Source of the DNA: Gammaproteobacteria bacterium
GTDB taxonomy: Bacteria > Pseudomonadota > Gammaproteobacteria > Eutrophobiales > Eutrophobiaceae
Direction of reading: 5' to 3'
Assembly: GCA_965240365.1 (NCBI GenBank)
Contig: OZ251218.1
Coordinates: 258,689-322,688, forward strand
DNA length: 64,000 bases
Shown here: positions 2,963 through 56,058 of the stretch, piece after piece
Numbering within the stretch: the stretch's first letter is position 1
Layout of the letters: every line of letters begins with the position of its first letter
Made by a program: the position numbers and the translations under genes
The notes under the pieces: generated by a model
The model's input: only the letters and a program-made list of their open reading frames with translations
Database searches by the model: none
Told to the model about the DNA's origin: nothing

Positions 2963-3349
2963 CTAACTGAACTTCTCATAGGCCCTTCTCAAGTCCACCA
3001 GCGGGTGGTTGGGCGACATCTGAAACTTGACCAGCAATTCGCGCGCGATCATATCACGCTCCTGCTGATTGTCGGGCAGATCTATGGATTCCGGCACCGT
3101 CACCCAGCCGTTGATGTTGCGGTCAAACACGGCCGCCCGGCCTTCTTCATAGCCCATATGCACATCTTCCAGCCAGTTCAGGTCTTGCCAGCCCATGATC
3201 TCGATGTATTTTTTGAGGAAGGGGGTGATTATGTTGAGATCCGGCACCAGGTTTACGTCATAACGGTAACCGATATGCTGGCCGATGATCTTTTCGCGTT
3301 CGCTGTCGAGGCCATCGCTCTCCAAAAAATGATCAATATCTTTGCTCAT
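2963..3349 (-). CDS. hypothetical acidic 128-aa protein at the distal end of module 1
   Basis: Clean ORF co-directional with and 55 nt downstream of the FMN-domain gene. No motif recognised. Confidence 0.45.
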   Translation of the reverse strand: MSKDIDHFLESDGLDSEREKIIGQHIGYRYDVNLVPDLNIITPFLKKYIEIMGWQDLNWLEDVHMGYEEGRAAVFDRNINGWVTVPESIDLPDNQQERDMIARELLVKFQMSPNHPLVDLRRAYEKFS

Positions 3350-3404
3350 GTTCTTCTCCCGCCGCGCTTATCCGGCTGGCTAAAAAAGCAGGGTATTCCT
3401 TACT

Positions 3405-4748
3405 TCAGAAACGGGTCATGTCGGGGCAGCCTACGGTATGCTGGGAACCGGCCAGCGGCACTTGCGCGAGCGCGGAGGCTTCCATCGTCAGGGCCGCCAG
3501 GTCTTCCGGTTCGAGCGAATGAATATTGGTCTTGCCGCAGGCGCGGGCAAAAAGCTGCGCTTCTATCGCCAGGGTGTGCAGAAAGTTGTAAACGCGCACC
3601 GCGGCCTCGTCCGGGTTCAGGCGTTGGCGCAGTTTTGGATCCTGGGTGGCGATACCGACCGGGCAGCGACCGGTATGGCAGTGGTAACAGTAGCCCGCCT
3701 CGACCCCCAATTCATTTTCATAATCGGCCTCGGGGATATCCTTGTTACAGTTCATCGCCATCATGGCCGAGTGACCGATCGCAACGGCGTCGGCGCCGAG
3801 GGCGATGGCCTTGGCCAAGTCCGCGCCGTTGCGAATCCCGCCGGCATAGATCAGGGATATTTTGCCTTCCATGCCCACTTCCTGGATGGCGCGGCGGGCC
3901 TGCCGGATCGCGGCGATGCCGGGCACCCCGGTGTCTTCCGTGGCCAGATGCGGCCCGGCCCCGGTGCCGCCTTCCATGCCGTCTATGTATATGGAATCGG
4001 GATCGGTCTTGGCCGCCATGCGCACGTCATCATAGACCCGGGCCGCGCCCAGTTTTAACTGGATCGGGATCTGCCAGTCCGTCGCTTCACGAATTTCCTC
4101 GATCTTCAGGGCGAGGTCGTCCGGCCCCATCCAGTCCGGGTGACGCGCCGGTGAACGCTGGTCGATACCGGCCGGCAAGGAACGCATCTCCGCCACCTGA
4201 TCGGTCACTTTTTGTCCCATCAGGTGCCCGCCCAGGCCCACCTTGCAGCCCTGACCAATGAAGAATTCAACGCCATCGGCGAGCCGCAGATGTTGCGGAT
4301 TAAAACCGTAACGGGATTGAATACATTGATAGAACCATTTTTCCGAATAGCGGCGTTCATCCGGGATCATGCCGCCTTCGCCGGAGCAGGTCGCGGTGCC
4401 GGCCATGGTCGCCCCGCGGGCCAGCGCGGTCTTGGCTTCGTAGCTCAACGCGCCAAAGCTCATGCCGGTGATGTAAACCGGGATGTCCAGTTCCAGCGGC
4501 CGTTTGGCGCGCGGGCCGATGATGGTCCGGGTCGCGCATTTTTCCCGGTAGCCCTCGATCACAAAGCGGGTCAGCGTGCCCGGCATAAAGGTCAGGTCAT
4601 CCCAGGTCGGGATCTTTTTGAACAGTGAAAAGCCGCGCATCCGGTAGCGGCCGAGTTCGGCCTTGACATGGATGTCGTTGATCACTTCGGGCGGAAAGAT
4701 AAAACTCTTTCCCAACTGATATTTTTTGGCTTCTTTTACGGCAGACAT
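3405..4748 (-). CDS. glutamate synthase FMN-binding central domain protein (GltB domain 2; MgsC/GlxD-like), module 1
   Basis: GltB central-domain motifs: GMSFGALS, GEGG, QGAKPG-like GQGCKVGLGGHL, SGGIRNG, CHTGRCPVGIATQDP. The start was chosen at the internal ATG preceded by a GAGAGGG RBS. Confidence 0.85.
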   Translation of the reverse strand: MSAVKEAKKYQLGKSFIFPPEVINDIHVKAELGRYRMRGFSLFKKIPTWDDLTFMPGTLTRFVIEGYREKCATRTIIGPRAKRPLELDIPVYITGMSFGALSYEAKTALARGATMAGTATCSGEGGMIPDERRYSEKWFYQCIQSRYGFNPQHLRLADGVEFFIGQGCKVGLGGHLMGQKVTDQVAEMRSLPAGIDQRSPARHPDWMGPDDLALKIEEIREATDWQIPIQLKLGAARVYDDVRMAAKTDPDSIYIDGMEGGTGAGPHLATEDTGVPGIAAIRQARRAIQEVGMEGKISLIYAGGIRNGADLAKAIALGADAVAIGHSAMMAMNCNKDIPEADYENELGVEAGYCYHCHTGRCPVGIATQDPKLRQRLNPDEAAVRVYNFLHTLAIEAQLFARACGKTNIHSLEPEDLAALTMEASALAQVPLAGSQHTVGCPDMTRF

Positions 4749-4770
4749 AATTTTTACCCTCTCGTGGTTT

Positions 4771-5613
4771 TTACAGCACCAGTTTCTTTTCGGTCGGCTC
4801 CAGATTGTCATAGTTCCATAACTGTTTGCCTGACTCGATCTTGCTCATGTTTTCAACGCCATCCGGCGCGGACAGCCCATACAAACGGAGCTTGTGTTCA
4901 AGGTATTGAATATCAAGTTCGGTTAAATCGGCCTGCACGGCGTCCACGCCCAGGCTTTTGGCCTTGCCGCCCAGATAGATCGTGCCGTCGTACATGGAAT
5001 CACCGAGATTTTCGCCGGCATCGCCCAAGATGATCAGCCGGCCGCGCTGCATCATAAAACCGGTAAAGGCCCCCACGCTGTCACCGACAATGATAGTGCC
5101 GCCCTTCTGGTCAATGCCGACCCGGGCGCCGGCGCGCCCTTTGCAAACCAGATCGCCGCCCCGGATCGCGGCGCCGAACAATGAGCCGGCATTCTTTTCA
5201 ATCACGACCGTGCCGGCCAGCATATTTTCGCCGCATGACCAGCCCACGCGGCCATTGATGCGGACATTCGGCCCGTCGATCAAGCCGCAGGCGAAATAAC
5301 CCAAGCTGCCCTCAAAATCCAGCTTAAGGCGATTGAGGATGCCCACCCCCAGGGCATGTTTGCCCATTGGATTGGTAATCGTGATCGCGCCATAACCTTC
5401 CTTCATCAGTTCCCGCAGCCGGCGATTGATCTCGGAGTTGCTCATTTCGGCGCAGTCGAATTCCGCTGCCTTGTCGAAATCTACGGCATAGGCATAGGCA
5501 TGCACAAAGTTTTCTTCCTCGGAAGACGAGAAATAAATTTGCTGGCTGCGCCCGGCCAGTTGTTCATCGTGCATCCCCATTGCATGGGATTTATGTTCTT
5601 CTACGCCTGCCAT
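4771..5613 (-). CDS. glutamate synthase GXGXG-domain protein (GltB C-terminal domain; MgsB/GlxC-like), module 1
   Basis: Repeated glycine-rich GxGxG motifs typical of the GltB C-terminal domain: GDLVCKGRAGARVG, IIVGDSVGAFTGFMM, LIILGDAGENLGDSM. Confidence 0.85.
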   Translation of the reverse strand: MAGVEEHKSHAMGMHDEQLAGRSQQIYFSSSEEENFVHAYAYAVDFDKAAEFDCAEMSNSEINRRLRELMKEGYGAITITNPMGKHALGVGILNRLKLDFEGSLGYFACGLIDGPNVRINGRVGWSCGENMLAGTVVIEKNAGSLFGAAIRGGDLVCKGRAGARVGIDQKGGTIIVGDSVGAFTGFMMQRGRLIILGDAGENLGDSMYDGTIYLGGKAKSLGVDAVQADLTELDIQYLEHKLRLYGLSAPDGVENMSKIESGKQLWNYDNLEPTEKKLVL

Positions 5614-6539: not shown

Positions 6540-6559
6540 AATTCTTTTGCCTCTTGAAT

Positions 6560-6780
6560 TAATAACAAATTACAGCCTTGAATCTGGCGCTGTAAACAGA
6601 AACTACGGGTTATTCAACACCCCGGCATCCTTTCCCTGGATTCCTCGGCAGCTTGTTCCAGACCTGCCTGCAGCAGGCAGGCGCTGCTCTACCACCTGCG
6701 TCCATGCAGGCGGGCTTTCGCTGGAATGACGATGGAGTGATACGGACAAATCACGGCAATCCCGGTTTTCACTCCCGCTC
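6560..6780. repeat. composite small repeat (palindromic unit CCTGCCTGCAGCAGGCAGG plus a ggctttcgctggaatgac unit) in the GS-like/amidotransferase intergenic gap
   Basis: The sequence recurs near 41540-41660, 43920-43990 and 48780-48900 in this window. Confidence 0.6.
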
Positions 6781-6805
6781 CTGGCATCACTGAATCAGGA
6801 TTTCC

Positions 6806-8278: not shown

Positions 8279-8391
8279 TTTGCTGACTCCCTATTTCGTT
8301 ATGAATCTTTTTCCGCTTGCCTTTCCGCTGGCAACACGGCGCTCTGGCGGCCCTTGTAGAGACGCGAAATTTTACGTCTCCAGCGTCCGGC

Positions 8392-9735
8392 TCAACTCCA
8401 TGGAAAAGGACTGTTGGATACCGGATGCAGACGGCCTTCACGGTACCTTGAAAACCGGAATGGTTCAAGCAGGCGGGAAGCATGTCCCATGATCTCGCCG
8501 GCGACCAGCTTGCCGACGCCCAGCATCTTGTAGCCATGATTCGAATCGGCAATGAAATAACAGTTTTCACGAAATACATCAAACACGGGGAAACTGTCGG
8601 GGGTGAAGGCGCCAATGCCGCCGGACGCCTCCTTTTTATAGACGCCGAGCCGCCCTTCAAAGCGTTTTTGACAATGGGCCAATGCCGAGCACCACATGTG
8701 GGCAAAGTCCTCGCCCATGACATAGTCCGGTGATTCCGGGCCATAGGGATCAACGGCCACCTCATCCGGGTCAGTGCTGATCGGACAGGGGGCCGCCCCG
8801 CCCTGGACGCCGCCAAAATTAAAATCGGGCTTGTAGTAGATGCCCCACATCTCGTCGCTGATCAAGCTGCCGTTGACATCCGAATAAAGGGGCGCGTCAC
8901 TGTCAACATGGATAACCGGCGGTGTCCGGCCGTCATTCGTTTTAAGATAATTCGGATCGACGCCCAGGGTGCCTTCCTGCAAGGACCAGTAAATCCACAT
9001 ATTGATATCGGTATGCAGGCTGCCGTCGGCGGCCTTGACGCTGATCGTCTTCGGCAAGGCCAGCATATCCCAAAAGCGCTTTGCCCAGGGACCGGCGCCA
9101 ACGATGACATAATCGCACTCAATGCTGCCCTGATCGGTTTCGACCGCGCTGATCGCGGCGCTGCCGTTGGCGCTCTTAAAGCCGGTCACCGTGACACCGG
9201 ATTCAATCCTGACGCCTTCCGCCTCGGCCTTGCCGGCCAGGCCATACATCGACTTGCGATTGTGCGCATAACCGCCGCGCTTTTCATGCAGGACAGAGGT
9301 GATACCCTGGGCCTGCCAGTCATCAAACAGGGCTTTCATATATTTGCGGCTGTCGGCGGCGCCCTCGACAAAGACCGATTCATAGCCGATATCCCTTTGC
9401 TGATCGGCGATGGCCGCCACATCTGCGCGCATGGATTCCGGGCTGATCTGCAAATAACCGACCGGCCGGTAGGCGTAGGCCTCTGTATCCGCCTCCCAGA
9501 TATCAACGCTGTGCGCCATGAGTTCGCGCATCGCGGGTTGATAGTAATTGTTTCGAATCACGCCGCAGGCGATACCGGAGGCCCCGGCGGCAATGCCGCG
9601 CTTGTCAATAACCAGAATATCAACGCCGCCGCCCCTGCCGCCGGCCTTTAGTTCAAGGGCAAGATGATAAGCCGTGCTCAAGCCATGAATGCCGGCGCCA
9701 ATAATTAAATACTTGCTGTGTGTCGGGAATGTCAT
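8392..9735 (-). CDS. FAD-dependent oxidoreductase (sarcosine oxidase beta / gamma-glutamyl-amine oxidase PuuB-like)
   Basis: Rossmann dinucleotide motif IIGAGIHGLSTAYHLA near the N-terminus. The start was chosen at the ATG preceded by a GAGGGGG RBS (MTFPTH...). Confidence 0.75.
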   Translation of the reverse strand: MTFPTHSKYLIIGAGIHGLSTAYHLALELKAGGRGGGVDILVIDKRGIAAGASGIACGVIRNNYYQPAMRELMAHSVDIWEADTEAYAYRPVGYLQISPESMRADVAAIADQQRDIGYESVFVEGAADSRKYMKALFDDWQAQGITSVLHEKRGGYAHNRKSMYGLAGKAEAEGVRIESGVTVTGFKSANGSAAISAVETDQGSIECDYVIVGAGPWAKRFWDMLALPKTISVKAADGSLHTDINMWIYWSLQEGTLGVDPNYLKTNDGRTPPVIHVDSDAPLYSDVNGSLISDEMWGIYYKPDFNFGGVQGGAAPCPISTDPDEVAVDPYGPESPDYVMGEDFAHMWCSALAHCQKRFEGRLGVYKKEASGGIGAFTPDSFPVFDVFRENCYFIADSNHGYKMLGVGKLVAGEIMGHASRLLEPFRFSRYREGRLHPVSNSPFPWS

Positions 9736-9955
9736 GTGGCCCCCTCGTTCAAGATAAAAACATAACATTAAATGAACCGGGAATAACCGATTACAATCTC
9801 ATATTCGATTGTTGCAAGGCAGCGGTCAATTTATCTGTCGATATACCACTTCGGTGGTAAATGTTGGCGCCTTAAACTTTCCCGGCGACGGCAAACTTTA
9901 CGCGATTTTGTCCTTTATCCTTGCAAATCAGGCAGATTTTGCCTAATTTACAAGG

Positions 9956-10495
9956 ATGATCGCCCGATTTATTACTTCAAAGGTGCAACAAGCCCTGCGG
10001 CGCCAGGCCGCGGTTGCGCTCATTGGACCCAGACAGGCCGGCAAAACGACGCTTGCGCTTGAAATCGGCAAGGCAGCCGGCGGTCTGGATCTGGAAGATA
10101 GCAATGATCGCAATCGCCTGACCGAACCCATTCTGTTTTTTGAGAAATTTGAAGATCGGCTCATCATTCTGGACGAAATTCATCGCGCGCCGGATTTATT
10201 TGAGGCCTTGTGCGGCGTGGTAGATAAGGGCCGGCGTAGGAAGAAGGACAAAAACCGGTTTTTGATTTTGGGTTCTACCTCAATTGACCTGCTGAGACAA
10301 TCCAGAGAAACCCTGGCAGGCCGGATTGCCTATGTCGATATGGGCACATTGGCGACCATTACTCTTTCATCATTTCACCCTGACACCGTAAACAAAAACC
10401 GAGGGCTGTCCAGCATTCCGACAGCGCCTTCCTGGATTCCAGCTTTTGCCTGCCTGCTACAGGCAGGTCAAGCTAATCGGTCTGACGCAGTATAA
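9956..10495 (+). pseudogene. AAA ATPase (AAA_14/DUF4143-type) 5' fragment, truncated by insertion of the palindromic repeat unit
   Basis: Walker A motif GPRQAGKTT and Walker B ILDEIH. The reading frame ends inside the repeat (IPAFACLLQAGQ = cctgcctgctacaggcaggtc) at about 160 aa, where about 400 aa is usual. Confidence 0.55.
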
Positions 10496-10955
10496 ATCCG
10501 CCGGCTTTTCTTTCTACCATAAATACGGCCTGCCGCGGCGTGAGCGTCGTTTCCCGCAAATCGAAGGCGATTATCTCATTGTTGAAGTCGATAACTCTGT
10601 TGCCGTCTCTGGTGGCGAAGGCGATCACACTCAACTGCGCCTCTGCCATCATCCGCCTTCTTTCCCGCTGGCTCAAGTCCCAGTTAAACGGGCAGTCCGG
10701 GAGCCTGATCCTGCTCTGGAAATGGGTGATTATTCTGGCCCTTTGCCAGGCAAAGGGAATCATATCGCTCAGCCGGATTTTTTTGCCCGCATTTTGCCTC
10801 ACCTTTTCATAAAGCGCGGCCCGCAGCATGCCGATATCCGTACAGATTCGATATTGCTGAACATAAAAAGCCGCTAAAACGATAACGGCAAGCACAACGG
10901 CAATGACCATCCCCGGCCTGCCGGGCAGGCTGTTCAAGGCGTTTCTGATGTTCAT
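10473..10955 (-). CDS. hypothetical membrane-anchored protein (one N-terminal TM helix)
   Basis: 160-aa ORF with an N-terminal hydrophobic helix. No recognised motif. Confidence 0.4.
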   Translation of the reverse strand: MNIRNALNSLPGRPGMVIAVVLAVIVLAAFYVQQYRICTDIGMLRAALYEKVRQNAGKKIRLSDMIPFAWQRARIITHFQSRIRLPDCPFNWDLSQRERRRMMAEAQLSVIAFATRDGNRVIDFNNEIIAFDLRETTLTPRQAVFMVERKAGGFILRQTD

Positions 10956-10971
10956 GCGGCGCGTTTCCTGT

Positions 10972-11132: not shown

Positions 11133-11227
11133 AAGCCGCCCAACTCCGCTCAAGCCCGGGGTCTGTTGCAAACGCCTTCGCGGCGCCCCGGCAACCGGTT
11201 TCAGCCGGGCCGGGGCCGCGCGGTCGA

Positions 11228-11461: not shown

Positions 11462-11476
11462 TATGTCCTCCTGTGT

Positions 11477-12913
11477 TTAAAGTAAACCAATCTTCTTCGC
11501 CTCATCACGCACCGCGTTATTGAGGGCTTCGGCCGCCCTGGTGTCTTCAAGGTCGTAATCCAGATCCAGGCCCGCCAGTTCGATTTCCCTGGGTATGCGT
11601 AACAGGCCCACGCCGTTCAGGAGTCTGGCCACGATATAACCGGGGATAAAACCCAATACAAAAAACATGATGACCGCGCCCGCAAGCTGGCCGAGCGGGT
11701 TGATGGTGGATTCCATAAACGGCGATGCCGGATAACCCCAGAGCATGAAACCGCAGACGACCACGCCGTAAAAACCGGCATAACCATGCACGGCAACGGC
11801 GCCGACGGCGTCATCGATCTTGAACCGGCGTTCCACCCAGTAATGCAGCTTGTAGATCAGGCAGACGCCCACCGCGGCGATCAGCATGGACTGGATCGGA
11901 TGATAGAGATCATTACCGGCCGAGGCCGCAATCACGCCGGCCAGGCCGCCCGAGTAGGTCCAGAAGGGATCGCCTCTGGACATGAAATAACCGGCCAGCA
12001 GGCCGCCGGACAGGGACATCAGGAAGGTGAAGGTAATGCCCGACAGGGAGGTGGGGCCGAGATAGATATTGGTGGCGGTAAAAAAGCTGCCCTCTATATC
12101 CAGCACATCCGGCCCGTAAAAATCAATAATGGGTATATTACAGGCGGCATAAAAGCCCCAGAAACCGGTATAGATCAGGAACAGGCCGATGGTCACCAGC
12201 CACGGATTATGCGGGCGAATGGCGCGCGGGCTGCCATCGGCCCTGAATTTGCCGATACGCGGGCCGAGCACGGTGAGCACTGCCAGGGCGAAGCCGCCGG
12301 CAATCGCATGCACCACCCCGGAGGCATAGGCGTCATGGTAACCCAGCTTGTGCACCATCCAGCCGTCCCAGTGCCAGCCCCAGGCCGCATCCGTAATCCA
12401 GAGCACGGAACCCAGCAGCACCGCCAGCATCCAGAACGCGCCTGAACGGATACGTTCGATCACCGCGCCGGACACAATTGAACCCGTGGTCCAGGAGAAC
12501 AACAGGAACGCGGCCCAGAAGGCGCCGTTGATACGCGCCCAATAGCCGGTGTCGTCCGCCGTGACGCCTTCCTGAAAGGCGGCCCCGCCCATGTGGACCC
12601 CCATCAATTCGCTCCAGGGCACCGCGTTCACGGCCGCGATCAGGCCGCCGCCTTCCTGTTGCAGCCCGGCAAAATTCAGAAACGGCCCGTTCGGCAGGGC
12701 AAAATAGATCCACCAGCCAAACAGAAAGAAAGTCACCGTGATCAACGGTATCAGCATCGTATTCTTCATCAGCGTGTGCAACTGATTCTTGCGCCTTGAA
12801 ACACCAACTTCATACATGCAGAATCCGACATGGATCAAAAACATCAACACCACGGTGATCCAGTAGTAGAATTCTGTGAATATTACGACCAATGACGATA
12901 ATTCATTATCCAT
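11477..12913 (-). CDS. amt: ammonium/methylammonium transporter, Amt/MEP family
   Basis: About 11 TM segments, typical Amt composition and length (478 aa), with a cytoplasmic C-terminal tail. Confidence 0.85.
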   Translation of the reverse strand: MDNELSSLVVIFTEFYYWITVVLMFLIHVGFCMYEVGVSRRKNQLHTLMKNTMLIPLITVTFFLFGWWIYFALPNGPFLNFAGLQQEGGGLIAAVNAVPWSELMGVHMGGAAFQEGVTADDTGYWARINGAFWAAFLLFSWTTGSIVSGAVIERIRSGAFWMLAVLLGSVLWITDAAWGWHWDGWMVHKLGYHDAYASGVVHAIAGGFALAVLTVLGPRIGKFRADGSPRAIRPHNPWLVTIGLFLIYTGFWGFYAACNIPIIDFYGPDVLDIEGSFFTATNIYLGPTSLSGITFTFLMSLSGGLLAGYFMSRGDPFWTYSGGLAGVIAASAGNDLYHPIQSMLIAAVGVCLIYKLHYWVERRFKIDDAVGAVAVHGYAGFYGVVVCGFMLWGYPASPFMESTINPLGQLAGAVIMFFVLGFIPGYIVARLLNGVGLLRIPREIELAGLDLDYDLEDTRAAEALNNAVRDEAKKIGLL

Positions 12914-13194: not shown

Positions 13195-14856
13195 ATGGAA
13201 CAACGTAGTCTATCTGGCAAAACTGAATCACCTACTACAGTTACTATCGAGCAATCAGCGAGTCGCCTGGGCGTCTCCACTGCAACCATTCGAAACTGGA
13301 TAAAAACCAAATATCTGGAGCAGGTAGGGAAGGGAAGGATTACACAAGATTCGCTGGAGCAGTTTCAGTTGGAAGTTCTGGCTAAGGAAAAATTGATTCA
13401 AAGGGCAAACAAGTCATTAAAAGACGCGCATGACCATGAAAAAACGGTATCCATGTTTCTTGCCAGGGTCACTTCAGCTATCAATTCGCCAGAGAAGATA
13501 AGTATAGAATATGAATCGAGTTTATCAGATTCCTACCGCAACAAAGAAGGAATCTACTACACCCCTGCTAGTGTAGTAAGCAATCTATTTTCAGCGCCAG
13601 AAGATGATATCCGAAACGCCTCATTCTGTGACCCGTGCTGCGGTTCCGGGAACTTTATTGTCCGCGCCCTGGAGTTGGGCTTTCAGCCGCAAAATATCTA
13701 TGGCTATGATACTGACCCGGTTGCCGTGGAAATAACAAAGGCCAGAATCTATAAACTCAGCGGCTATAAAAGCCCGCATATCAAGCTGGCCGATTTCCTG
13801 GATATAACGGCCGGGCAAGGGCACGCCGGGTTTGATTTTATCTACACCAATCCGCCCTGGGGCAAGAAGATTCGGAAGAAAACCAGGGCGGCAATCGGAT
13901 TAAGACTTAAAGCAGGGAACAGCACAGACACCTGCTCACTCTTTTTCTTTGCCTGTCTCAAATATCTTAAAGACAACGGGGTTTTGGGCCTGCTGTTGCC
14001 CGAGTCCTTTTTCAATATTGCCGTTTTCGAGGAAGCCAGGGCCAGGGCGTTGCGGCTTTCCATCGAGAGGCTCATCGACTATGGCAGAGTCTTCAAAGGT
14101 CTGATGACAAAGGCACAGGCGCTGGCGCTCAAAAACAGACCGCCCGTGTCTCATGCAAGGATTTCATGCGAGCTTATGGGGGCTTTTTATCACAGATCGA
14201 TGGCTTCATTTGCCGGCAACCCAAAGTCTATCCTCAATCTACATTGTGATACCCAAGCGGCGCGCACCCTGCAACATCTTTGGTCTATACCCCATATCAC
14301 GCTAAAAAACCGGGCGGCATGGGGACTGGGCATCGTTACCGGCAATAATAAAAAGTTTATAAGATCAAAGCCTGCAAAGGGATATATACCCGTTTACAGG
14401 GGCGCCGATATTCTGCGAGGACGCCTGAAACCGGCGAGCGGTTTCATACCCGCCGATATGGACCTGTATCAGCAGGTCGCGCCGCTTCAATTTTATGAAG
14501 CTAAGGAGAAACTGATCTATAAGTTCATATCCGACAGACTGGTGTTTTTTTATGACGACCGGCAGAGGTATGTGCTCAACAGCGCCAATATGCTGATCCC
14601 GGATAATACCTTCCCCGTTCCGGCCAGAGTGCTTGCTGAACTCTTGAACAGCGATGTTATGAATTGGGTATTTGCAAAACTGTTCAGTACTCGCAAAATA
14701 TTAAGAGGCGATCTGGAATCACTGCCGATTCACGGCCGGTTTCTTGCAAAGGCATCCGGGTTTGACGAGGCCCGCTATCTTCGGCAGCTTGGGATAGAGC
14801 AAGACGGCAATGGCGCTTACCGGCCCATGAAGCGGGCCGGCGCGGGGCTTTGCTAA
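13195..14856 (+). CDS. HTH-fused N6-adenine DNA methyltransferase (gamma-class, TaqI-like target-recognition domain), no visible endonuclease partner
   Basis: An N-terminal excisionase/MerR-type HTH (LGVSTATIRNWIKTKYL), methyltransferase motif I FCDPCCGSGNF and motif IV FIYTNPPWGK. The gene and its upstream spacer are visibly AT-richer than the flanks. Confidence 0.8.
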   Translation: MEQRSLSGKTESPTTVTIEQSASRLGVSTATIRNWIKTKYLEQVGKGRITQDSLEQFQLEVLAKEKLIQRANKSLKDAHDHEKTVSMFLARVTSAINSPEKISIEYESSLSDSYRNKEGIYYTPASVVSNLFSAPEDDIRNASFCDPCCGSGNFIVRALELGFQPQNIYGYDTDPVAVEITKARIYKLSGYKSPHIKLADFLDITAGQGHAGFDFIYTNPPWGKKIRKKTRAAIGLRLKAGNSTDTCSLFFFACLKYLKDNGVLGLLLPESFFNIAVFEEARARALRLSIERLIDYGRVFKGLMTKAQALALKNRPPVSHARISCELMGAFYHRSMASFAGNPKSILNLHCDTQAARTLQHLWSIPHITLKNRAAWGLGIVTGNNKKFIRSKPAKGYIPVYRGADILRGRLKPASGFIPADMDLYQQVAPLQFYEAKEKLIYKFISDRLVFFYDDRQRYVLNSANMLIPDNTFPVPARVLAELLNSDVMNWVFAKLFSTRKILRGDLESLPIHGRFLAKASGFDEARYLRQLGIEQDGNGAYRPMKRAGAGLC

Positions 14857-16163: not shown

Positions 16164-16268
16164 GTCACTCCTGTTGTTTTAGCGATACAGAATAGAATAG
16201 CATGCCCGCAAACGCGGCAATAATGTTGTTGCCGGCAAGAATGGCATTTCCCCCAGATAAATGTAAGG

Positions 16269-17591
16269 CTATTTGTAACTGTCGCCCCCCGGGATCCAGT
16301 CCGTCCCGGCCAGCGGCACACCGGCCATCGCGGCGGCTTCGACGGTCAGCGCGACCAGATCTTCCGGCTCAAGATTATGCAGATGCGATTTGCCACAGGC
16401 GCGCGCCAGGGTTTGCGCCTCCAGTGTCATGGTCTGCAACAGATTTTTAATCCGCCGCCCGCCGAGTTCCGGGTCACACCGCCGCGCCAGTTCCGGTTCC
16501 TGGGTTGAAATACCGGCCGGGCAGCGGCCGAGGTGATAGGCGTCATAATAACCGGGGGCCGTGCCCATCTTGCGGTAATCCTCGGCGTATTTGGGCGAGT
16601 TACAGCCTAATGCGTACATCGCGGCCATGCCGATCGATACGGCATCGGCCCCCAGCGCCATACACTTGGCGACATCGGCGCCGTTGCGGATGCCGCCGGA
16701 CACAATAAGCTGTACCTTGCGGTGCATGCCCATATCCTTTAATGCCTCGACGGCGATGCGTACCGCTGGCAAGGTCGGAATACCGACATGCTCAATAAAC
16801 ACATCCTGGGTCGCCGCCGTGCCGCCCTGCATACCGTCAACCACGATCACATCGGCCCCGGCCTTGACCGCCAGTTGCACATCATAGCGCGTGCGGGTCG
16901 CGCCGATCTTCACATAAACCGGTTTTTCCCAGTCCGTGATCTCGCGGATCTCCGCGAGCTTGATCGCCAGATCATCGGGGCCGGTCCAGTCCGGATGCCG
17001 GCAGGCGCTGCGTTGATCAATCCCCTTTGGCAGGGTGCGCATTTCCGCCACCCGGTCGCTGATCTTGTGGCCCAGCAACATGCCGCCGCCGCCGGGCTTC
17101 GCGCCCTGCCCGCAGACGACTTCTATCGCGTCGGCCTGGCGTAAATCATCCGGGTTCATACCGTAGCGTGAAGGCAACATCTGATAGACCAGGGTTTCCG
17201 AAGAGCGGCGTTCCTCCGCGGTCATGCCGCCGTCACCGGTCGTGGTCGAGGTGCCCATGGCCGCCGCGCCCTTGCCCAGGGCATCCTTGGCCTCGGCCGA
17301 CAGGGCGCCGAAGCTCATGCCGGCGATGGTGATCGGTATCTTCAAGTGCAGCGGTTTTTTCGCATGGCGCGCGCCGAGCCTGACATCGGTATCGCAACGT
17401 TCACGATAGCCTTCCAGCGGATAGCGCGACATGCTGGCGCCTAAAAACAATAAATCGTCAAAGTGCGGCAGCCTGCGCCGCGCGCCCCCGCCACGGATAC
17501 TGTAGATGCCTTCGGTCGCGGCGCGCTGGATTTCCTGAATGGTATGCCGGTTCCAGATATACGATTCCTGCAACACGGGGTCTTCATTCAT
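16269..17591 (-). CDS. glutamate synthase FMN-binding central domain protein (MgsC/GlxD-like), module 2
   Basis: Same motif set as the module-1 paralogue: GMSFGALSAEAK, GDGG, GQGAKPGGGG, SGGIRNG, HLGRCPAGISTQEP. The start is at the ATG after an AAGGAG RBS. Confidence 0.85.
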   Translation of the reverse strand: MNEDPVLQESYIWNRHTIQEIQRAATEGIYSIRGGGARRRLPHFDDLLFLGASMSRYPLEGYRERCDTDVRLGARHAKKPLHLKIPITIAGMSFGALSAEAKDALGKGAAAMGTSTTTGDGGMTAEERRSSETLVYQMLPSRYGMNPDDLRQADAIEVVCGQGAKPGGGGMLLGHKISDRVAEMRTLPKGIDQRSACRHPDWTGPDDLAIKLAEIREITDWEKPVYVKIGATRTRYDVQLAVKAGADVIVVDGMQGGTAATQDVFIEHVGIPTLPAVRIAVEALKDMGMHRKVQLIVSGGIRNGADVAKCMALGADAVSIGMAAMYALGCNSPKYAEDYRKMGTAPGYYDAYHLGRCPAGISTQEPELARRCDPELGGRRIKNLLQTMTLEAQTLARACGKSHLHNLEPEDLVALTVEAAAMAGVPLAGTDWIPGGDSYK

Positions 17592-17670
17592 ATCGGCTTG
17601 CTCCTTTGTTTGAATTGTGGGTTCCTGCGCCTGCTCTCGGGCTTGATCGCGCCACCTGCCCGGCCGCGAT

Positions 17671-18351
17671 CTACAAGGCCGCATGATCGATCTTGAAGTT
17701 ATACAGGGTCCTTGCCGGCCCGTAGAGCCTGAATTTTTTCCAGTCGGCCTTTATCCCGGCCCTGTCAAGCAGGGACTGCAGGGTTTCGGTCTGTTCCGGC
17801 CCCATCTCTTTCGCTTCGCAATCATGGCCCAGGCTCTTTACCTCGCCCCGCACAAAAATCTGCAACTCAAGGATAGAATCGCCCAGCGCATCCCCGGCGT
17901 CGCCGCAGATCACCATGTTGCCCGCCTGACCCAAAAAGGCGCACATGTGCCCGGCCGAACCGCCCACGACAATATCGACCCCCTTCATGGATATGCCGCA
18001 ACGCGCGGCGGCGTCGCCTTCGACCACGACCAGACCACCGCGGCCGCTGGCGCCGGTATATTGGGAGGCGTTGCCCTTGACCCGCACCACGCCGGACATG
18101 ATGTTCTCGGCCAGCCCGGCGCCGGCATTGCCGTTGACGGTGATACGCGCGTGTTTATTCATGCCGCCGGCATAATGCCCGGCATGACCGGCTATGGCGA
18201 TGTCCGCCTCGGCATCGACACCGACCGCGATATTATGCTTGCCGTTTGGATGCAGGATTCTAAAACGCTTGTCGCTGTCTTTATGGTTGAGCTTATGCAG
18301 CCTGGCGTTCAACTCGCGCACGGCCTGTTTATCCAGATCGATTTCCTGCAT
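17671..18351 (-). CDS. glutamate synthase GXGXG-domain protein (MgsB/GlxC-like), module 2
   Basis: Glycine-rich repeats (NGNAGAGLAENIMSG, VVVEGDAAARCG, VVGGSAGHMCAFLG). Confidence 0.85.
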   Translation of the reverse strand: MQEIDLDKQAVRELNARLHKLNHKDSDKRFRILHPNGKHNIAVGVDAEADIAIAGHAGHYAGGMNKHARITVNGNAGAGLAENIMSGVVRVKGNASQYTGASGRGGLVVVEGDAAARCGISMKGVDIVVGGSAGHMCAFLGQAGNMVICGDAGDALGDSILELQIFVRGEVKSLGHDCEAKEMGPEQTETLQSLLDRAGIKADWKKFRLYGPARTLYNFKIDHAAL

Positions 18352-18650
18352 TACCGCCGGCCCCGAACCGATTGTGTGTTTATGCTTACTCCAAGCGCCA
18401 TCAATGCCACCTGCAGGCGGGAGCGCGCCCGCAGCTTCCGCATCAGATTCTTGACATGGATCTTTACGGTGCCTTCACAGATGCCCAGCTCTCTGGCGAT
18501 CATCTTGTTGCTCATCCCGGCCGTGATCAGCCGTTGTATTTCCTGCTCTCTGGCCGTTAGCGGATGCGCGCTGTCATTGTTTATTTGAGGCTCGGTAGCG
18601 CCTTGCGTATGGATTAATGCCGGATTATTCATTGTGATGACCTCTGCCAA
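18351..18650 (-). CDS. solo LuxR/GerE-type HTH transcriptional regulator (99 aa, DNA-binding domain only)
   Basis: LuxR-type HTH: LTAREQEIQRLITAGMSNKMIARELGICEGTVKIHVKNLMRKL. Its ends overlap the upstream amidotransferase gene by 22 nt and the downstream GXGXG gene by 1 nt. Confidence 0.75.
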   Translation of the reverse strand: MAEVITMNNPALIHTQGATEPQINNDSAHPLTAREQEIQRLITAGMSNKMIARELGICEGTVKIHVKNLMRKLRARSRLQVALMALGVSINTQSVRGRR

Positions 18651-19534
18651 CTGTAGATTTTTGCCGGTTCGGGTTCCCAGATTCGGGCGTTCTCTACGCC
18701 GGGCAAACAGGCGATGGAACGAAATTCGGAGGCCATGGCCACCCAGTCCCCGGTCTCGGCCAGAATGGCGGGCTTGGCGCCGATAGGGTCGCGCATCACG
18801 GCAAAGCCGTCATGGGTCCCGATCGCAAAGGTATAGAAACCGTCCAGGTCTTCCAGGCCTTCGGCCAACGCCTCGTCCAGCGTCGCGCCCTGTTGCAATT
18901 TCCAGGTCAGGTATCCGGCCGCCACTTCGCTGTCGTTTTCGGTCTGGAATGTCACGCCTTCCCTTTGCAGGGCCCGGCGCAGACGATTGTGATTAGATAA
19001 AGAGCCGTTGTGCACGAGGCAGAGGTCTTCACCGGTCGAGAAAGGATGGGAGGCCGATGTGCTGACCGCGCTCTCGGTCGCCATGCGGGTATGGCCGAGC
19101 GCATGAGTGCCGGACATGCCCTCTACTTCAAAGCGCCGGATGACATCCCGCGGCAGCCCCTGCTCTTTGTAGATGACGATATTGGTGCCGGAACTGGTCA
19201 TGTACAACTCCGGGTGTTCATGCTGCAACCAGCCCTGCAGGGTCTTGGCAGCGGCCCGCACCGTTAAAACGGCATGATTGCTCTTGATCTCGACCGCCGA
19301 GTCCGCGCCGAAGACCTCCTTGAGCCCGGCGCCGAGTCTCTCCCAGGAATAATCGGGGTCGATTGAAAGCACGGTGATCCGGGTCATGCCCTCGGCCGCG
19401 GTATCGCCGTAAATGGCAATACCGGCGCTGTCCGGCCCGCGCTCGGTCATTTCGACCAGCATGGGCGACAACAAGGCCCCGAGTTTATCTTCCAGCTCGG
19501 GCGCCTTGATAAAAATTCCGACAATTCCGCACAT
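18629..19534 (-). CDS. class-II (Ntn) glutamine amidotransferase domain protein (MgsA/GlxB-like), module 2
   Basis: N-terminal MCGIVGIF with catalytic Cys at position 2, and LVHNGSLSNH. Confidence 0.85.
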   Translation of the reverse strand: MCGIVGIFIKAPELEDKLGALLSPMLVEMTERGPDSAGIAIYGDTAAEGMTRITVLSIDPDYSWERLGAGLKEVFGADSAVEIKSNHAVLTVRAAAKTLQGWLQHEHPELYMTSSGTNIVIYKEQGLPRDVIRRFEVEGMSGTHALGHTRMATESAVSTSASHPFSTGEDLCLVHNGSLSNHNRLRRALQREGVTFQTENDSEVAAGYLTWKLQQGATLDEALAEGLEDLDGFYTFAIGTHDGFAVMRDPIGAKPAILAETGDWVAMASEFRSIACLPGVENARIWEPEPAKIYSWQRSSQ

Positions 19535-19590
19535 TGCTCCCCCTGCATAGTATTGGCGATCAGGTCTGATGCCTACAGCACCTTCGATAA

Positions 19591-19617
19591 TATATTATTC
19601 ATCTGGCGAATAATATA
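19591..19617. promoter_or_regulatory. candidate operator, a perfect 10-bp inverted repeat TATATTATTC-N7-GAATAATATA in the module-2 promoter region
   Basis: Read directly from the sequence, 57 bp upstream of the amidotransferase start. A second perfect palindrome, ATAATATTAT, lies at 19714-19723. Confidence 0.5.
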
Positions 19618-19763
19618 AGGCTTTTTGAGGTCGTTCTATTGGCCTTCCGCTAATCTGAAAACGACTTGAATTGAGTTTAGTAGAGGATATGGCCGCTGTC
19701 AACTTTGAGTAATATAATATTATTATCAGGAATATTAAGTTCATCCGCAAGGTCAGGCAGCGC

Positions 19764-20438
19764 TTATTCTTCCAGATTGGGCCGATAGATACAGGCCAGT
19801 AGCCGGATCGGGAGCCGGAGCAATTCCTCCGGCCCATGCGGCGCGTCCGAGTCAAAAAACAGCGAATCGCCCGGCTGCATCAAATAGGTCTCATTGCCAT
19901 GCCGGTAGATGACTTCCCCCTCCAGCAGATAGATAAATTCAACGCCGGTATGCTGAAACAGCGGAAAGACCTCGGATTGATCGGTCAAGGTGATCAGATA
20001 GGGTTCCAGTGACGCCAGCCGGTTGATATTGTGCCCGAGCAGTTGATACTGATGCCCGGCGCGCGTGCCCCGGCGTTCAATCAACAGGCCCTTGCCCGAC
20101 TTTACAAAACTGCAATCACGCTGTTCTTCATATTTTCTGAACAAGGACGTGACCGGGACATTCAACGCCCTGGCCAGGGCATACAGGGTCCCGAGCGAAG
20201 GCGCGGTCACGCCGCGCTCGATCTTCGACAACATGCCCTGCGACAGGCCGGCCTGCTTGGCCACTTCGCCGGCCGTCATCTTAAGCTGCTTGCGAAACGT
20301 GCGGATCTGCGAGCCGACAGCCATCTCCAGTTGTTTTTCCCCGGCCTCATCCGCCGCCAGATTTATAAATCCCGGGGTAGTTTCGCTGTTATAATCGTGT
20401 TTTAGGCTATTGGACATTGTGTAATTCCGTATCATCAA
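19764..20438 (-). CDS. XRE-family HTH plus cupin transcriptional regulator (PuuR-like)
   Basis: An HTH_XRE region (LKMTAGEVAKQAGLSQGMLSKIERG) followed by a C-terminal cupin fold, the PuuR architecture. The exact start is uncertain because there are several in-frame ATGs. Confidence 0.75.
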   Translation of the reverse strand: MMIRNYTMSNSLKHDYNSETTPGFINLAADEAGEKQLEMAVGSQIRTFRKQLKMTAGEVAKQAGLSQGMLSKIERGVTAPSLGTLYALARALNVPVTSLFRKYEEQRDCSFVKSGKGLLIERRGTRAGHQYQLLGHNINRLASLEPYLITLTDQSEVFPLFQHTGVEFIYLLEGEVIYRHGNETYLMQPGDSLFFDSDAPHGPEELLRLPIRLLACIYRPNLEE

Positions 20439-20582
20439 TACACGGGTTGACCGCCGCTCTGCGGCCGCGCCCCGAGTTTAGACGCCGCGCGCCGGAATAC
20501 TTATACCCATTTGGAGATATAGTGTTTCATTCTTGCGCCATCTAAACTTGATGTTTCCATCAAAGACGGGCCATGATAACCC

Positions 20583-21308
20583 ATGAAAGTGCTTGTATTT
20601 CAACATATTGCCATAGAGCATCCCGGCATCTTCCGTGACTTTCTGAGAGAAGACGGCATAGCATGGGACACCGTTGAACTGGATATGGGCGCCGCCATCC
20701 CGGAACTGGAGGATTATGCCGCGCTGATTGTCATGGGCGGGCCGATGGATGTCTGGCAAGAGCGGGAACACCCCTGGCTGATAGCTGAAAAGCAGGCCAT
20801 CCGCCGGGCCATCATGGATTTAAAGATGCCCTTCCTGGGCTTTTGCCTTGGGCATCAGCTTATGGCTGACGCGCTGGGCGGCAAAGTCGGCAAGATGAGC
20901 GAGCCGGAAGTGGGCATTCTGGAGGTTGAACTGACTTCGGCGGGTCGGGCCGCACAAATCCTTGCCGGCCTGCCCGCAACATTCAAAAGCCTGCAATGGC
21001 ACGGGGCCGAGATCTGCGAGGCGCCGCCGGACAGCCTGATACTGGCGCGCTCGCCGCTGTGCGGCATACAGGCGCTGCAATACGGCGAGTCTGCATTCAG
21101 CCTGCAATTCCATATTGAAATAATCGATTCGACCGTGGCCGATTGGGGCAAGATACCGGCCTACAAACAGGCGCTTGAACAGACACTGGGGCCGGGTTCG
21201 CTGGAAAGATTAGGGGCCGAAACGCATGAACAGATGGATGATTTTAATCACTCGGCCAGATTGATCTATGACAACTTTATCTCTGCCGTAAAAAAACGTT
21301 CGGCATGA
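20583..21308 (+). CDS. class-I glutamine amidotransferase-like protein (GATase1; candidate gamma-glutamyl-amide hydrolase, PuuD-like role)
   Basis: Nucleophile elbow GFCLGHQL and a C-terminal His-Glu pair (FHIEII). Confidence 0.75.
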   Translation: MKVLVFQHIAIEHPGIFRDFLREDGIAWDTVELDMGAAIPELEDYAALIVMGGPMDVWQEREHPWLIAEKQAIRRAIMDLKMPFLGFCLGHQLMADALGGKVGKMSEPEVGILEVELTSAGRAAQILAGLPATFKSLQWHGAEICEAPPDSLILARSPLCGIQALQYGESAFSLQFHIEIIDSTVADWGKIPAYKQALEQTLGPGSLERLGAETHEQMDDFNHSARLIYDNFISAVKKRSA

Positions 21309-21487
21309 AACCCGTCACGGCCGGCATCTTCCTGTTTATCGTTATCATACTCTGCGGCTATGTGGTTTCAAGCAGCACCGGGGTATATAAGATTGCCGGT
21401 TTCAGTCTGGGTATCCTGGCGACATTGGCCGCAATTTACCTGCACAGAAAAACCCGCAATGAGAATGGCAGTAAAGGGCATTTCTAA
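21305..21487 (+). CDS. 60-aa two-helix membrane protein between the twin amidotransferase genes
   Basis: An ATGA start/stop overlap with the upstream gene, and two hydrophobic helices (IFLFIVIILCGYVV, FSLGILATLAAIYL). Confidence 0.45.
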   Translation: MKPVTAGIFLFIVIILCGYVVSSSTGVYKIAGFSLGILATLAAIYLHRKTRNENGSKGHF

Positions 21488-21504
21488 AATCTGAATAACA
21501 GCCC

Positions 21505-22218
21505 GTGGGCCTTATGAAACCGATTTACATATTTCGGCATGAAGACTGGATTCAGGCCGGGCGGTTTACCGAAGTGCTCGACAAACAGGGCATGGATTAC
21601 AAAATCATTGCCATCGACCGGGGCGATCCGGTACCCGCGGATACTGGCGCGATGTCCGCCCTGGTCTTCCTCGGTGGGACCATGAGTGTCAATGACGGGC
21701 ATGACTGGCTGGCCGCTGAACTCAGGCTGATTCGGAAGGCCGCAGACAAGGGCCTGCCGCTCTTGGGGCATTGCCTGGGTTCACAATTAATCAGCAAGGC
21801 TCTGGGCACAACGGTGCAAACCATGCCCGAGAACGAGATCGGCTGGCATCCCATAAGAGCGGCCGCAAACAACACAAGCCGGGAATGGCTTGGTGATCTG
21901 CCGGAGCAACTCGAAGTCATGGCCTGGCACCATGACGAATTCTCACTGCCCGAGGGCGCGGTGCAACTGTTTGCCAGCCCTTACTGTCAATGCCATGCCT
22001 TCGTGCTCGATCATACCCTGGCCACGGTCGCCCATATCGAAGTAACCGTTGCCATGTTAAACGTCTGGCTCCACAAGTACGGTCACGACATAAAACCCAA
22101 CGGCGCCAGCGTGCAATCGATCGCGCAGATTCGCCATAATATGGCGGCGCGGGTTGCAAAGATGCATCAATTGACGGATCGGCTTTATCAAAAGTGGCTA
22201 CAAAATATTACCGATTAA
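21505..22218 (+). CDS. class-I glutamine amidotransferase-like protein (GATase1), second paralogue
   Basis: Nucleophile elbow GHCLGSQL and a His-Glu pair (AHIEVTV). Confidence 0.75.
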   Translation: MGLMKPIYIFRHEDWIQAGRFTEVLDKQGMDYKIIAIDRGDPVPADTGAMSALVFLGGTMSVNDGHDWLAAELRLIRKAADKGLPLLGHCLGSQLISKALGTTVQTMPENEIGWHPIRAAANNTSREWLGDLPEQLEVMAWHHDEFSLPEGAVQLFASPYCQCHAFVLDHTLATVAHIEVTVAMLNVWLHKYGHDIKPNGASVQSIAQIRHNMAARVAKMHQLTDRLYQKWLQNITD

Positions 22219-55990: not shown

Positions 55991-56058
55991 GGTTTCGGTT
56001 TACTTTCTATTTCTTCATTTTATTTCCGTCAATAACAGGCAGACACATTATCTAACAG

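Follow-up and report, generated by a model that had tools for sequence, protein, structure and literature searches.

Positions 258,689 to 322,688 of contig OZ251218.1, from a marine gammaproteobacterium of the family Eutrophobiaceae, form the 64,000-nucleotide stretch of DNA analysed here (the window), and they contain an island for the utilisation of methylated-amine nitrogen and one-carbon (C1) units. The island carries two sets of genes, each encoding a ligase that resembles glutamine synthetase (GS) and a glutamate synthase (GOGAT) large subunit that is split into amidotransferase, GXGXG and flavin mononucleotide (FMN) proteins. One set, module 2, is by homology the canonical gmaS-mgsABC front end of the N-methylglutamate (NMG) pathway. 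The other, module 1, is assigned by its sequences to the SAR11_1304-1309 gene family, and we read it, with a probability of about 0.55, as an NMG-type route for a small methylated amine that is encoded by a second, anciently diverged operon.

Our gene inventory, built from a list of open reading frames (ORFs) and from Pfam and NCBIfam scans of the window proteins, bore out the central claim of a first-pass annotation of this DNA, namely that two complete sets of this kind are present. Module 1 comprises the following genes:

8392-9735, minus strand: DAO-family flavin adenine dinucleotide (FAD) amine oxidoreductase of the SAR11_1304 type (DAO; ORF to 9768; 447 residues in relatives); PF01266, 121 bits
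6806-8278, minus strand: GS-like ligase of 490 residues (GS490), SAR11_1305 type; Gln-synt_C, 264 bits
5601-6539, minus strand: class-II N-terminal nucleophile (Ntn) amidotransferase beginning with MCGI; GATase_6 and GATase_7
4771-5613, minus strand: GXGXG subunit; PF01493, 62 bits; syntenic in nearly all loci
3405-4748, minus strand: FMN (Glu_synthase) subunit, SAR11_1308 type; PF01645, 309 bits
2963-3349, minus strand: orphan protein of 128 residues (u128), SAR11_1309 type; no family match

All six genes stand in the same order as in the SAR11 loci L071-L080, and members of this family retain 74-88% identity across phyla (74-86% for GS490). The best 120 database clusters for GS490 were all at least 80% identical to it, with labels that included SAR324, Gammaproteobacteria, Planctomycetota and Lambdaproteobacteria. 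A GS490 scan of species-representative genomes returned at least 596 loci, and the best 80, onto which the window proteins were mapped, were 74-81% identical and belonged to Pelagibacterales, SUP05/Thioglobus, Arenicellales, Poriferihabitaceae, Rhodospirillales, Acidimicrobiia, Terriglobia and cyanobacteria. DAO and u128 were as strongly conserved as GS490. The core GS490-GATase-GXGXG-FMN-u128 was almost invariant, being syntenic in SAR11, SUP05, Arenicellales, Planctomycetota, Terriglobia and others; among the 48 full-length module 1 loci, for which we counted neighbours within 10 kb, the FMN subunit and u128 occurred together in 44 and DAO in 25. A GntR regulator or a helix-turn-helix (HTH)-cupin protein lay upstream of the core in related loci, and no GltD-like partner was present in the module 1 loci. 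In the literature searched (subscription-only papers lay outside its scope), we found no characterisation of the function of SAR11_1305-1309 or their homologues, nor of gamma-glutamyl-dimethylamide, N,N-dimethylglutamate or alternative dimethylamine enzymes.

Module 2 and its regulator were assigned as follows:

19764-20438, minus strand: HTH_3 and Cupin_2 regulator (HTH-cupin), upstream of mgsA
18629-19534, minus strand: mgsA, class-II amidotransferase beginning with MCGI; GATase_6 and GATase_7
18351-18650, minus strand: GerE/LuxR-only protein of 99 residues; PF00196, 74.8 bits
17671-18351, minus strand: mgsB, GXGXG subunit; PF01493, 36.5 bits; in register with the rhizobial cluster
16269-17684, minus strand: mgsC, FMN subunit of N-methylglutamate synthase; PF01645, 300 bits
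14853-16163, minus strand: gmaS (GlnT), gamma-glutamylmethylamide synthetase of 436 residues; TIGR03105

The first-pass annotation had doubted that the NMG pathway was the right assignment, a doubt that holds for the module 1 ligase, which lies outside the GmaS family, and fails for module 2. The 436-residue ligase exceeded the cut-off of the GmaS/GlnT model TIGR03105 for type III glutamate-ammonia ligases (654 against 469.6 bits), matched the crystallised Rhodovulum GmaS (RhGmaS, PDB 7cql) with 618 bits, was 64% identical to Rhizobium phaseoli GlnT and retained all methylamine-binding and catalytic residues of RhGmaS; it stayed below the cut-offs for GlnA (288 against 429 bits) and PuuA (256 against 650 bits), and has Trp at the flap position. 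The window mgsC shares about 74-75% nucleotide identity with glxD/mgsC on Rhizobium, Azospirillum and Pseudomonas plasmids, and the order of module 2 matches that of an R. phaseoli plasmid (soxBDA/glxA/HTH/amidotransferase/GXGXG/FMN/glnT/purU). Module 2 is thus a member of the NMG pathway (GmaS, MgsABC, MgdABCD) of Methyloversatilis, Methylocella and Ruegeria pomeroyi and of the rhizobial glnT-glxBCD cluster, with the same four proteins, order and HTH-cupin. Because the window HTH-cupin shows 59% identity with the HTH protein encoded ahead of mgsA in R. phaseoli while falling far below the PuuR cut-off (NF007408, 47.7 against 211 bits), we assign it to the NMG cluster as its regulator and not, as had been proposed, to a PuuR-like protein; its orthologues (65-67% identity) adjoin Amt or mgsA in loci L004, L023, L053 and L074. 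The GerE/LuxR-only ORF overlaps both mgsA and mgsB, and no GerE-type ORF lies between these genes in Rhizobium, SAR11 or the other loci inspected (L004, L052, L074, L075, L090). It is possibly a regulator peculiar to this lineage that has become part of the mgs operon.

Identities between the paralogues of modules 1 and 2 were only 28% (GS), 29% (amidotransferase), 35% (GXGXG) and 52% (FMN), and the two sets are ancient duplicates rather than recent copies. The first-pass annotation, which had described them as different in gene order and composition, was right in that they are not equivalent.

GS490 fell below the cut-offs of the curated models for GmaS/GlnT (TIGR03105, 293 against 469.6 bits), GlnA (TIGR00653, 242 against 429 bits) and PuuA (NF045547, 209 against 650 bits), in line with the earlier suspicion that module 1 is not a conventional GmaS/Mgs set. 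The GmaS/GlnT and PuuA profiles, which had been proposed as a check on both ligases, therefore gave a divided answer: the 436-residue ligase passes TIGR03105, GS490 does not, and neither passes PuuA. In a PDB sequence search, the top matches of GS490 were type I-alpha GS at about 200 bits, with GmaS at 166-169 bits. We then aligned GS490 and its SAR11 and SUP05 orthologues with RhGmaS, a SAR11 GmaS and a true GS (PDB 8ool) at the methylamine-pocket and catalytic residues assigned in the RhGmaS structure paper (PMC7948447):

RhGmaS Lys30': Lys in the GS490 family, Val in true GS
RhGmaS Tyr147: Tyr in the GS490 family, Phe in true GS
RhGmaS Gln175: Gln in the GS490 family, Ala in true GS
RhGmaS Asp177: Asp in the GS490 family, His in true GS
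RhGmaS Asn188: Asn in the GS490 family, Asp in true GS
RhGmaS Trp300 (flap): Trp in the GS490 family, Glu in true GS

Glu179, Glu186 and Arg312 are kept in the GS490 family and in true GS alike, and the whole GmaS methylamine pocket and catalytic set is present in GS490 and in its SAR11 and SUP05 orthologues. Because this set is retained complete, we predict that GS490 ligates a small cationic alkylamine to glutamate and is not a glutamine synthetase. At position 48', GS490 and its orthologues have Asp, corresponding to Asp50' of GS, where RhGmaS and the 436-residue ligase have Ala; GS490 also has Ile for Tyr174 and Asn for His237 of RhGmaS, and its 54 extra residues are three insertions relative to GmaS.

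Both amidotransferases keep the Ntn nucleophile (Cys1), the cysteine at position 2 right after the initiator Met. The FMN subunit of module 1 has four cysteines (C355, C375, C378 and C383; motif NCN..CYHCHTGRCPVG) that were invariant in 59 of 59 orthologues and are placed where GltB has its iron-sulphur (Fe-S) cluster, and we regard this subunit as a putative Fe-S protein. MgsC is variable at the same positions, with two of the four in the window, none in SAR11 and all four in some others. The amidotransferase, FMN and GXGXG domains of module 1 are homologous to those of GltB; they differ from it in being split into three proteins, in having no GltD and in scoring 135 bits against a GltB cut-off of 1047.

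These residues bear directly on the possibility that module 1 is an alternative ammonium-assimilating GS/GOGAT pair, in which GS490 would make glutamine and a split GOGAT with Fe-S and FMN would convert it to glutamate with an external reductant. The Asp matching Asp50' of GS, the four cysteines, the adjacent Amt gene and the type I-alpha GS enzymes at the head of the PDB matches would all suit such a pair. In contrast, the flap Glu of GS is replaced by Trp, as in GmaS, the residues at 175, 177 and 188 are those of GmaS and not the Ala, His and Asp of GS, the GlnA score is little more than half of its cut-off, the loci are without a GltD-like partner, and in SAR11 nitrogen limitation induces glnA but neither SAR11_1305 nor SAR11_1308. 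We rejected a true GS/GOGAT pair on the active-site residues and the nitrogen-limitation proteomics, and consider this explanation the most improbable of those discussed here.

The remaining module 1 proteins were less informative. u128 is without cysteine; an exhaustive HMMER search returned its own family only, a PDB sequence search gave 0 matches, and no recognisable fold emerged from the AlphaFold model, which reached a pLDDT of only 66. As it is conserved and strictly co-occurs with the core, we suggest that u128 is a tightly bound subunit of the module 1 synthase. In DAO, the PF01266 match covers the N-terminal, FAD-binding half only, which is the only half that could be aligned, and the score against the soxB subfamily (62 bits) lies below its cut-off of 529. 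The nearest folds were SoxB, DMGDH, DMGO and MSOX, and DAO belongs to the sarcosine/dimethylglycine/proline oxidoreductase superfamily; the AlphaFold model (pLDDT 62) is poor in the substrate domain, and the fold search is uninformative on substrate. No PuuB model was passed, and the description of DAO as a PuuB-like oxidase was not upheld.

Compared with the NMG pathway as a whole, module 1 shares the three synthase domains and the amine pocket of the ligase. It differs in that its ligase is 28% identical to GmaS, with the three insertions and Asp48', in that the ligase gene lies upstream of the synthase genes whereas gmaS lies downstream, in the invariant four-cysteine FMN subunit and u128, and in a monomeric DAO that often takes the place of mgdABCD. 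On sequence comparison, then, module 2 is already known, and module 1 resembles GmaS/MgsABC but falls outside the curated GmaS family and has the four-cysteine FMN subunit, u128 and DAO as extras.

To place module 1 in its genomic context, we used neighbour-ORF clustering and NCBIfam models. Recurrent neighbours were trimethylamine N-oxide (TMAO) demethylase (Tdm; NF053776, 1153 bits, cut-off 1100), trimethylamine monooxygenase (Tmm; NF058570, 816 bits, cut-off 675), SoxB/SoxA-type genes, BHMT and TmoX-like binding proteins. Either tdm or tmm lay within 10 kb in 24 of the 48 full loci, and sox/mgd-type genes in 10 more, giving a total of 34. As a control from the side of tdm, we collected 80 metagenomic loci with a Tdm profile; here the neighbours were TmoX-like proteins (27 loci), GS490 (23), Tmm (20) and GmaS (4), and GS490 was thus a far commoner neighbour of tdm than gmaS was. 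The conserved context of module 1 is methylated-amine catabolism (tdm, tmm, tmoX, sox/mgd, gmaS) and not polyamine catabolism.

Individual loci illustrate this context. In SUP05 the order is BHMT-HTHcupin-GS490-GATase-GXGXG-FMN-u128-tdm-tmoX-tmoV, and the SUP05 loci have module 1 with no gmaS within 10 kb. The SAR11 loci L075, L077 and L078 have tmoX..tdm-DAO-GS490-GATase-GXGXG-FMN-u128-amt-mgsABC-gmaS, and hence both modules, like the window. GS490 stands in front of soxBDAG-mgsABC-gmaS, a complete mgd-mgs-gmaS cluster, in L052, and both DAO and soxBDAG flank the core in L001, L032, L037-L039 and L054. One cyanobacterial metagenome-assembled genome (MAG) has the order SBP-Tdm-(173 aa)-Tmm-GS490 without Mgs genes. 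We also observed, in the cyanobacterial MAG L045 (11581-13563), a secreted copper amine oxidase gene directly after GS490, with tmm 5 kb upstream.

Adjoining module 1 in the window are the genes of a transporter:

1916-2860, minus strand: tmoX, periplasmic trimethylamine N-oxide (TMAO)-binding protein; PDB 4xz6 match
805-1848, minus strand: tmoV, importer ATPase; TIGR01186 proV subfamily, 335 bits (cut-off 326.6)
2-805, minus strand: tmoW, TMAO ABC permease, first 270 codons; runs off the left window end

This transporter had been taken for the betaine transporter proXVW. Its binding protein matches PDB 4xz6 with 408 bits (E 2.5e-121), the structure of the R. pomeroyi protein TmoX, which binds TMAO (PMC8918994), and we identify the transporter as the TMAO importer TmoXVW, with ligand binding predicted. 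The window tmoW is 98.9% identical (tblastn) to residues 1-270 of a 662-residue permease in locus L087, and MAG contigs 98.7-98.9% identical to the window (L087/L088) have the order DAO-GS490-GATase-GXGXG-FMN-u128-tmoX-tmoV-tmoW-tdm. Because these near-identical strains carry tdm after tmoW, we expect tdm directly beyond the left window edge. In another near-identical MAG (L086, 10587-11027), tmoXVW and most of tdm have been lost, and a 146-residue GCV_T_C fragment is left after u128; L087/L088 (10490-16949) and the window keep what this strain lost (tmoXVW, and in L087/L088 tdm). Within the window itself, we found no sox/mgd, Tdm or Tmm genes, the best SoxA/SoxB similarity being a 24% match to the DAO gene, which upholds the earlier statement that the mgdBCD dehydrogenase subunits are missing there.

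Two further genes of the island lie between the modules:

11477-12913, minus strand: divergent Amt-family channel, SAR11_1310 type; PF00909, 182 bits; below the amt and AmtB cut-offs
10473-10955, minus strand: small conserved protein of 160 residues (u160); no family match

Orthologues of this Amt (62-89% identity) adjoin module 1 or 2 in many loci, and it is a candidate for the transport of (methyl)ammonium. In SAR11, the orthologous protein SAR11_1310 disappears when nitrogen is limiting. Homologues of u160 (29-50% identity) adjoin Amt in L011, L013, L032, L038, L044 and L061, and Amt, a 77-residue ORF and the 160-residue protein form a trio that recurs beside module 1 or 2 in several phyla and is also seen in L086 (1-1945).

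The counterparts of these genes in the SAR11 strain 'Candidatus Pelagibacter ubique' HTCC1062 are SAR11_1303 to SAR11_1316 (PMC3160333, PMC3870248, PMC2704228), of which only SAR11_1313-1316 have been interpreted so far, as the NMG pathway. The HTCC1062 genes SAR11_1304-1309 (annotated sox, glnT, gltB2 and hypothetical) are 57-81% identical orthologues of module 1 with the order kept, and in both genomes module 1 lies between tmoXVW-tdm and amt-mgsABC-gmaS; the window differs in having tmoXVW-tdm and module 1 in inverted relative order and in its insertions (a methyltransferase gene, an AAA_14 remnant and the GerE ORF). When nitrogen was limiting, SAR11_1304 ranked second among the induced proteins, and its function 'remains uncertain' (PMC3870248); it alone among SAR11_1304-1309 has been discussed, as a possible amine oxidase. 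HTCC1062 is without dmmDABC and yet grows with TMAO as its only source of nitrogen, for which the authors invoked an unknown isoenzyme of Dmm (PMC8918994); dmmDABC is also lacking in marine Gamma- and Deltaproteobacteria, as in SAR11 (PMC5520151).

We propose the following order of events for the island. By homology, TmoXVW imports TMAO, Tdm, encoded next door in near-identical strains, converts it to dimethylamine and formaldehyde, GmaS ligates methylamine to glutamate, and MgsABC forms N-methylglutamate. In module 1, GS490 would, at the expense of ATP, fix a small cationic methylated amine as its gamma-glutamyl amide, the Cys1 amidotransferase would free the amine into the GXGXG/FMN(Fe-S) synthase, of which u128 is assumed to be the fourth subunit, and the resulting N-alkylglutamate would be stripped of its alkyl group oxidatively, regenerating glutamate, by DAO and/or a SoxBDAG-type dehydrogenase encoded elsewhere. 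Judged from the context, the substrate of module 1 is most likely a breakdown product of TMAO, either dimethylamine, in which case module 1 would supply the missing Dmm step, or methylamine when it is scarce.

A more specific version, which we offer tentatively as a possible one, holds that module 1 is the missing dimethylamine route of the most abundant marine bacteria without dmm, among them SAR11, SUP05, SAR324 and Arenicellales. GS490 would then ligate dimethylamine from Tdm to glutamate, giving gamma-glutamyl-dimethylamide, the Fe-S/FMN synthase with u128 would produce N,N-dimethylglutamate, and DAO would take off the first methyl group and a SoxBDAG/Mgd-type enzyme the second. Dimethylamine is attractive because it is the product of the adjoining Tdm and HTCC1062 grows on TMAO nitrogen without dmm, because streamlined genomes retain both modules, and because the presence of DAO together with SoxBDAG would suit the removal of two methyl groups in turn. 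DmmDABC would be a functional analogue of module 1 in this case, as it acts on the Tdm product and adjoins tdm in some genomes; it is unrelated to module 1 in sequence, and is a monooxygenase that requires oxygen and NAD(P)H, where module 1 would depend on ATP and proceed through glutamate. Dmm-like genes (a DmmA-family protein at 106 bits against a cut-off of 60, GcvT-like DmmD candidates and ferredoxin-reductase DmmB candidates) were present in 5 of the 80 tdm loci, none of which had GS490 (0/23 against 5/57, not significant).

Several observations weigh against assigning module 1 to methylated amines, or to dimethylamine in particular. No methylated-amine gene lay within 10 kb in 14 of the 48 full loci, and DAO was missing from about half of them, including all SUP05 loci. 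The mutual exclusion of dmm and GS490 rests on 5 against 23 loci and is suggestive only, carrying no weight in our assessment. In SAR11, nitrogen limitation slightly lowered the levels of SAR11_1305 and SAR11_1308 instead of raising them. The near-GmaS amine pocket would fit methylamine at least as well as dimethylamine, and we know of no demonstration that a GS-family enzyme ligates a secondary amine. The four conserved cysteines point to an external partner in electron transfer, which the proposed model does not name. Finally, homologues of GS490 at 54-55% identity occur in P450/GATase1 alkylamine-type clusters, and the wider ligase clade thus appears not to be confined to methylamines. Two such clusters, on Paracoccus sp. 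TOH plasmid p2 (L091) and on a plasmid of Ruegeria sp. SCSIO 43209 (L092), contain a second GS-like gene together with cytochrome P450 or aldehyde dehydrogenases, GATase1 and a gamma-glutamyl-GABA-hydrolase-family protein, and look like alkylamine gamma-glutamylation of the Ipu/Puu type.

The pocket also raises the question of whether module 1 is simply an isofunctional second NMG pathway for monomethylamine, unrelated to dimethylamine, for example a set of high-affinity or differently regulated isozymes in which DAO acts as a monomeric N-methylglutamate oxidase. GS490 has every methylamine-pocket residue of GmaS, the subunit set matches that of MgsABC, one Joint Genome Institute record labels a DAO homologue 'methylglutamate dehydrogenase subunit A', and in SUP05, where gmaS is absent within 10 kb, module 1 may be the sole methylamine route. 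However, streamlined SAR11 genomes keep both modules side by side, L052 has GS490 within a complete mgd-mgs-gmaS cluster, the paralogues are only 28-52% identical, the invariant four-cysteine motif and u128 are specific to module 1, linkage to tdm is far more frequent for module 1 than for gmaS, and the dimethylamine step of HTCC1062 would be left unexplained. We therefore consider isofunctional duplication rather unlikely, and retain the broader reading of module 1 as an NMG-type route for a small methylated amine.

The first-pass annotation had itself favoured a hybrid, Puu-like gamma-glutamylation of one or two unknown amines, for instance polyamines, with PuuR-, PuuB- and PuuD-like accessories serving both modules. 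The Puu (PuuA, PuuB, PuuC, PuuD, PuuR) and Ipu-type pathways do share a common logic with module 1, in which a GS-like ligase traps the amine on glutamate before oxidation. The parts on which this proposal was based are all present (GS-like ligases, the DAO flavoprotein, the HTH-cupin and two GATase1 proteins), and the 54-55% relatives of GS490 cluster with GATase1, a gamma-glutamyl-GABA-hydrolase-family protein and aldehyde dehydrogenases. Module 1 differs from Puu/Ipu in that the partner of its ligase is a split GOGAT-type synthase and not a GATase1 hydrolase with an aldehyde dehydrogenase, and no Puu model was passed (PuuA 209 and 256 bits against 650; PuuR 47.7 against 211). Moreover, the HTH-cupin is an NMG-cluster regulator, the island is devoid of aldehyde dehydrogenase genes (the closest one is found at 37252-38793), it is tdm, tmm, tmoX, sox and gmaS that recur as neighbours, and SAR11 catabolises putrescine by a transamination route (PMC8437039). 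The two GATase1 genes lie beyond the regulator:

20583-21308, plus strand: class-I GATase-domain protein; PF00117, 75 bits
21505-22218, plus strand: class-I GATase-domain protein; PF00117, 46 bits

They scored 135 and 145 bits against PRK07053 (cut-off 250) and passed no named NCBIfam model; their matches to PF07722 (Peptidase_C26; 22.5 and 24.9 bits, cut-off 20.5) span only 33-39 residues around the nucleophile, with PF00117 as the main match, and the label PuuD-like is doubtful. Comparison of neighbourhoods, proposed earlier as a check on the co-occurrence of the FAD oxidase and these genes, found the oxidase in 25 of the 48 full loci and the GATase1 genes seldom near either module, and their tie to the island is uncertain. 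As the curated models fail and the context is wrong, we rejected the Puu pathway, and regard a hybrid of this kind as very unlikely. The first-pass annotation was justified in flagging the region, and the reasons that it gave (Puu accessories, a betaine transporter and doubt about the NMG pathway) were largely wrong.

The rest of the window is filled by housekeeping genes (hom, thrC, recJ, rho, proS, ilvBC) and by the following features:

9956-10495, plus strand: truncated AAA_14 ATPase gene of 179 codons, a remnant inserted between the modules and unrelated to them
13195-14856, plus strand: orphan DNA methyltransferase (HTH_17, N6_Mtase and TaqI_C) in a patch of 50% GC between amt and gmaS
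50451-51758, minus strand: AbiEii nucleotidyltransferase toxin with a fused or following WYL domain; a gene of type IV toxin-antitoxin or defence type, unrelated to the island
6672-6737, 23306-23371, 35764-35838, 41434-41508, 43586-43660, 48963-49028 and 55927-55992: repeat copies
11003-11125/39817-39939 and 35767-35916/41437-41586: further repeat pairs

In the near-identical strain L086, a full AAA_14+DUF4143 gene of 392 codons occupies the place of the AAA_14 remnant. The stop codon of the methyltransferase gene overlaps that of gmaS, no restriction partner was seen, and the gene is probably a recent insertion, unrelated to the modules. The repeats form a dispersed intergenic family resembling REP or MITE elements, with units of 66-150 nucleotides and paired arms CATTCC(C/A)GC...GC(G/T)GGAATG. 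One weak copy lies in the unusually long gap of 266 nucleotides between the GS490 and amidotransferase genes, and may explain it. A scan with Rfam at gathering thresholds gave 0 matches, and hence no known riboswitch or leader in the island, and promoter and terminator counts were not above the shuffled expectation. A search of plasmid DNA with the island matched at mgsC only and revealed no close plasmid relative; the island is chromosomal.

Methylated amines constitute a major store of organic nitrogen in the sea and also give rise to climate-active aerosols. The route accepted for their use (Tmm, Tdm, Dmm, GmaS, Mgs, Mgd) has a gap, in that SAR11 and other dominant clades are without Dmm (PMC5520151, PMC8918994), and module 1 sits at the position of this gap in the gene cluster, making it a concrete and testable candidate for the Dmm step. 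It is among the most conserved gene sets of marine metagenomes, with thousands of near-identical copies across phyla, and has been visible in SAR11 genomes since 2005-2013 without being given a function in the literature found. Surveys of methylamine users that rely on gmaS as a marker miss the GS490 family. If the dimethylamine reading is true, module 1 would provide an ATP-driven, oxygenase-independent pathway that closes the 'DMA bottleneck' (dimethylamine, DMA) of the marine methylated-amine cycle; even if its substrate is methylamine, it would be new for this type of pathway, with a distinct ligase family that has the GmaS pocket, a synthase that apparently carries an Fe-S cluster, and an obligate orphan subunit.

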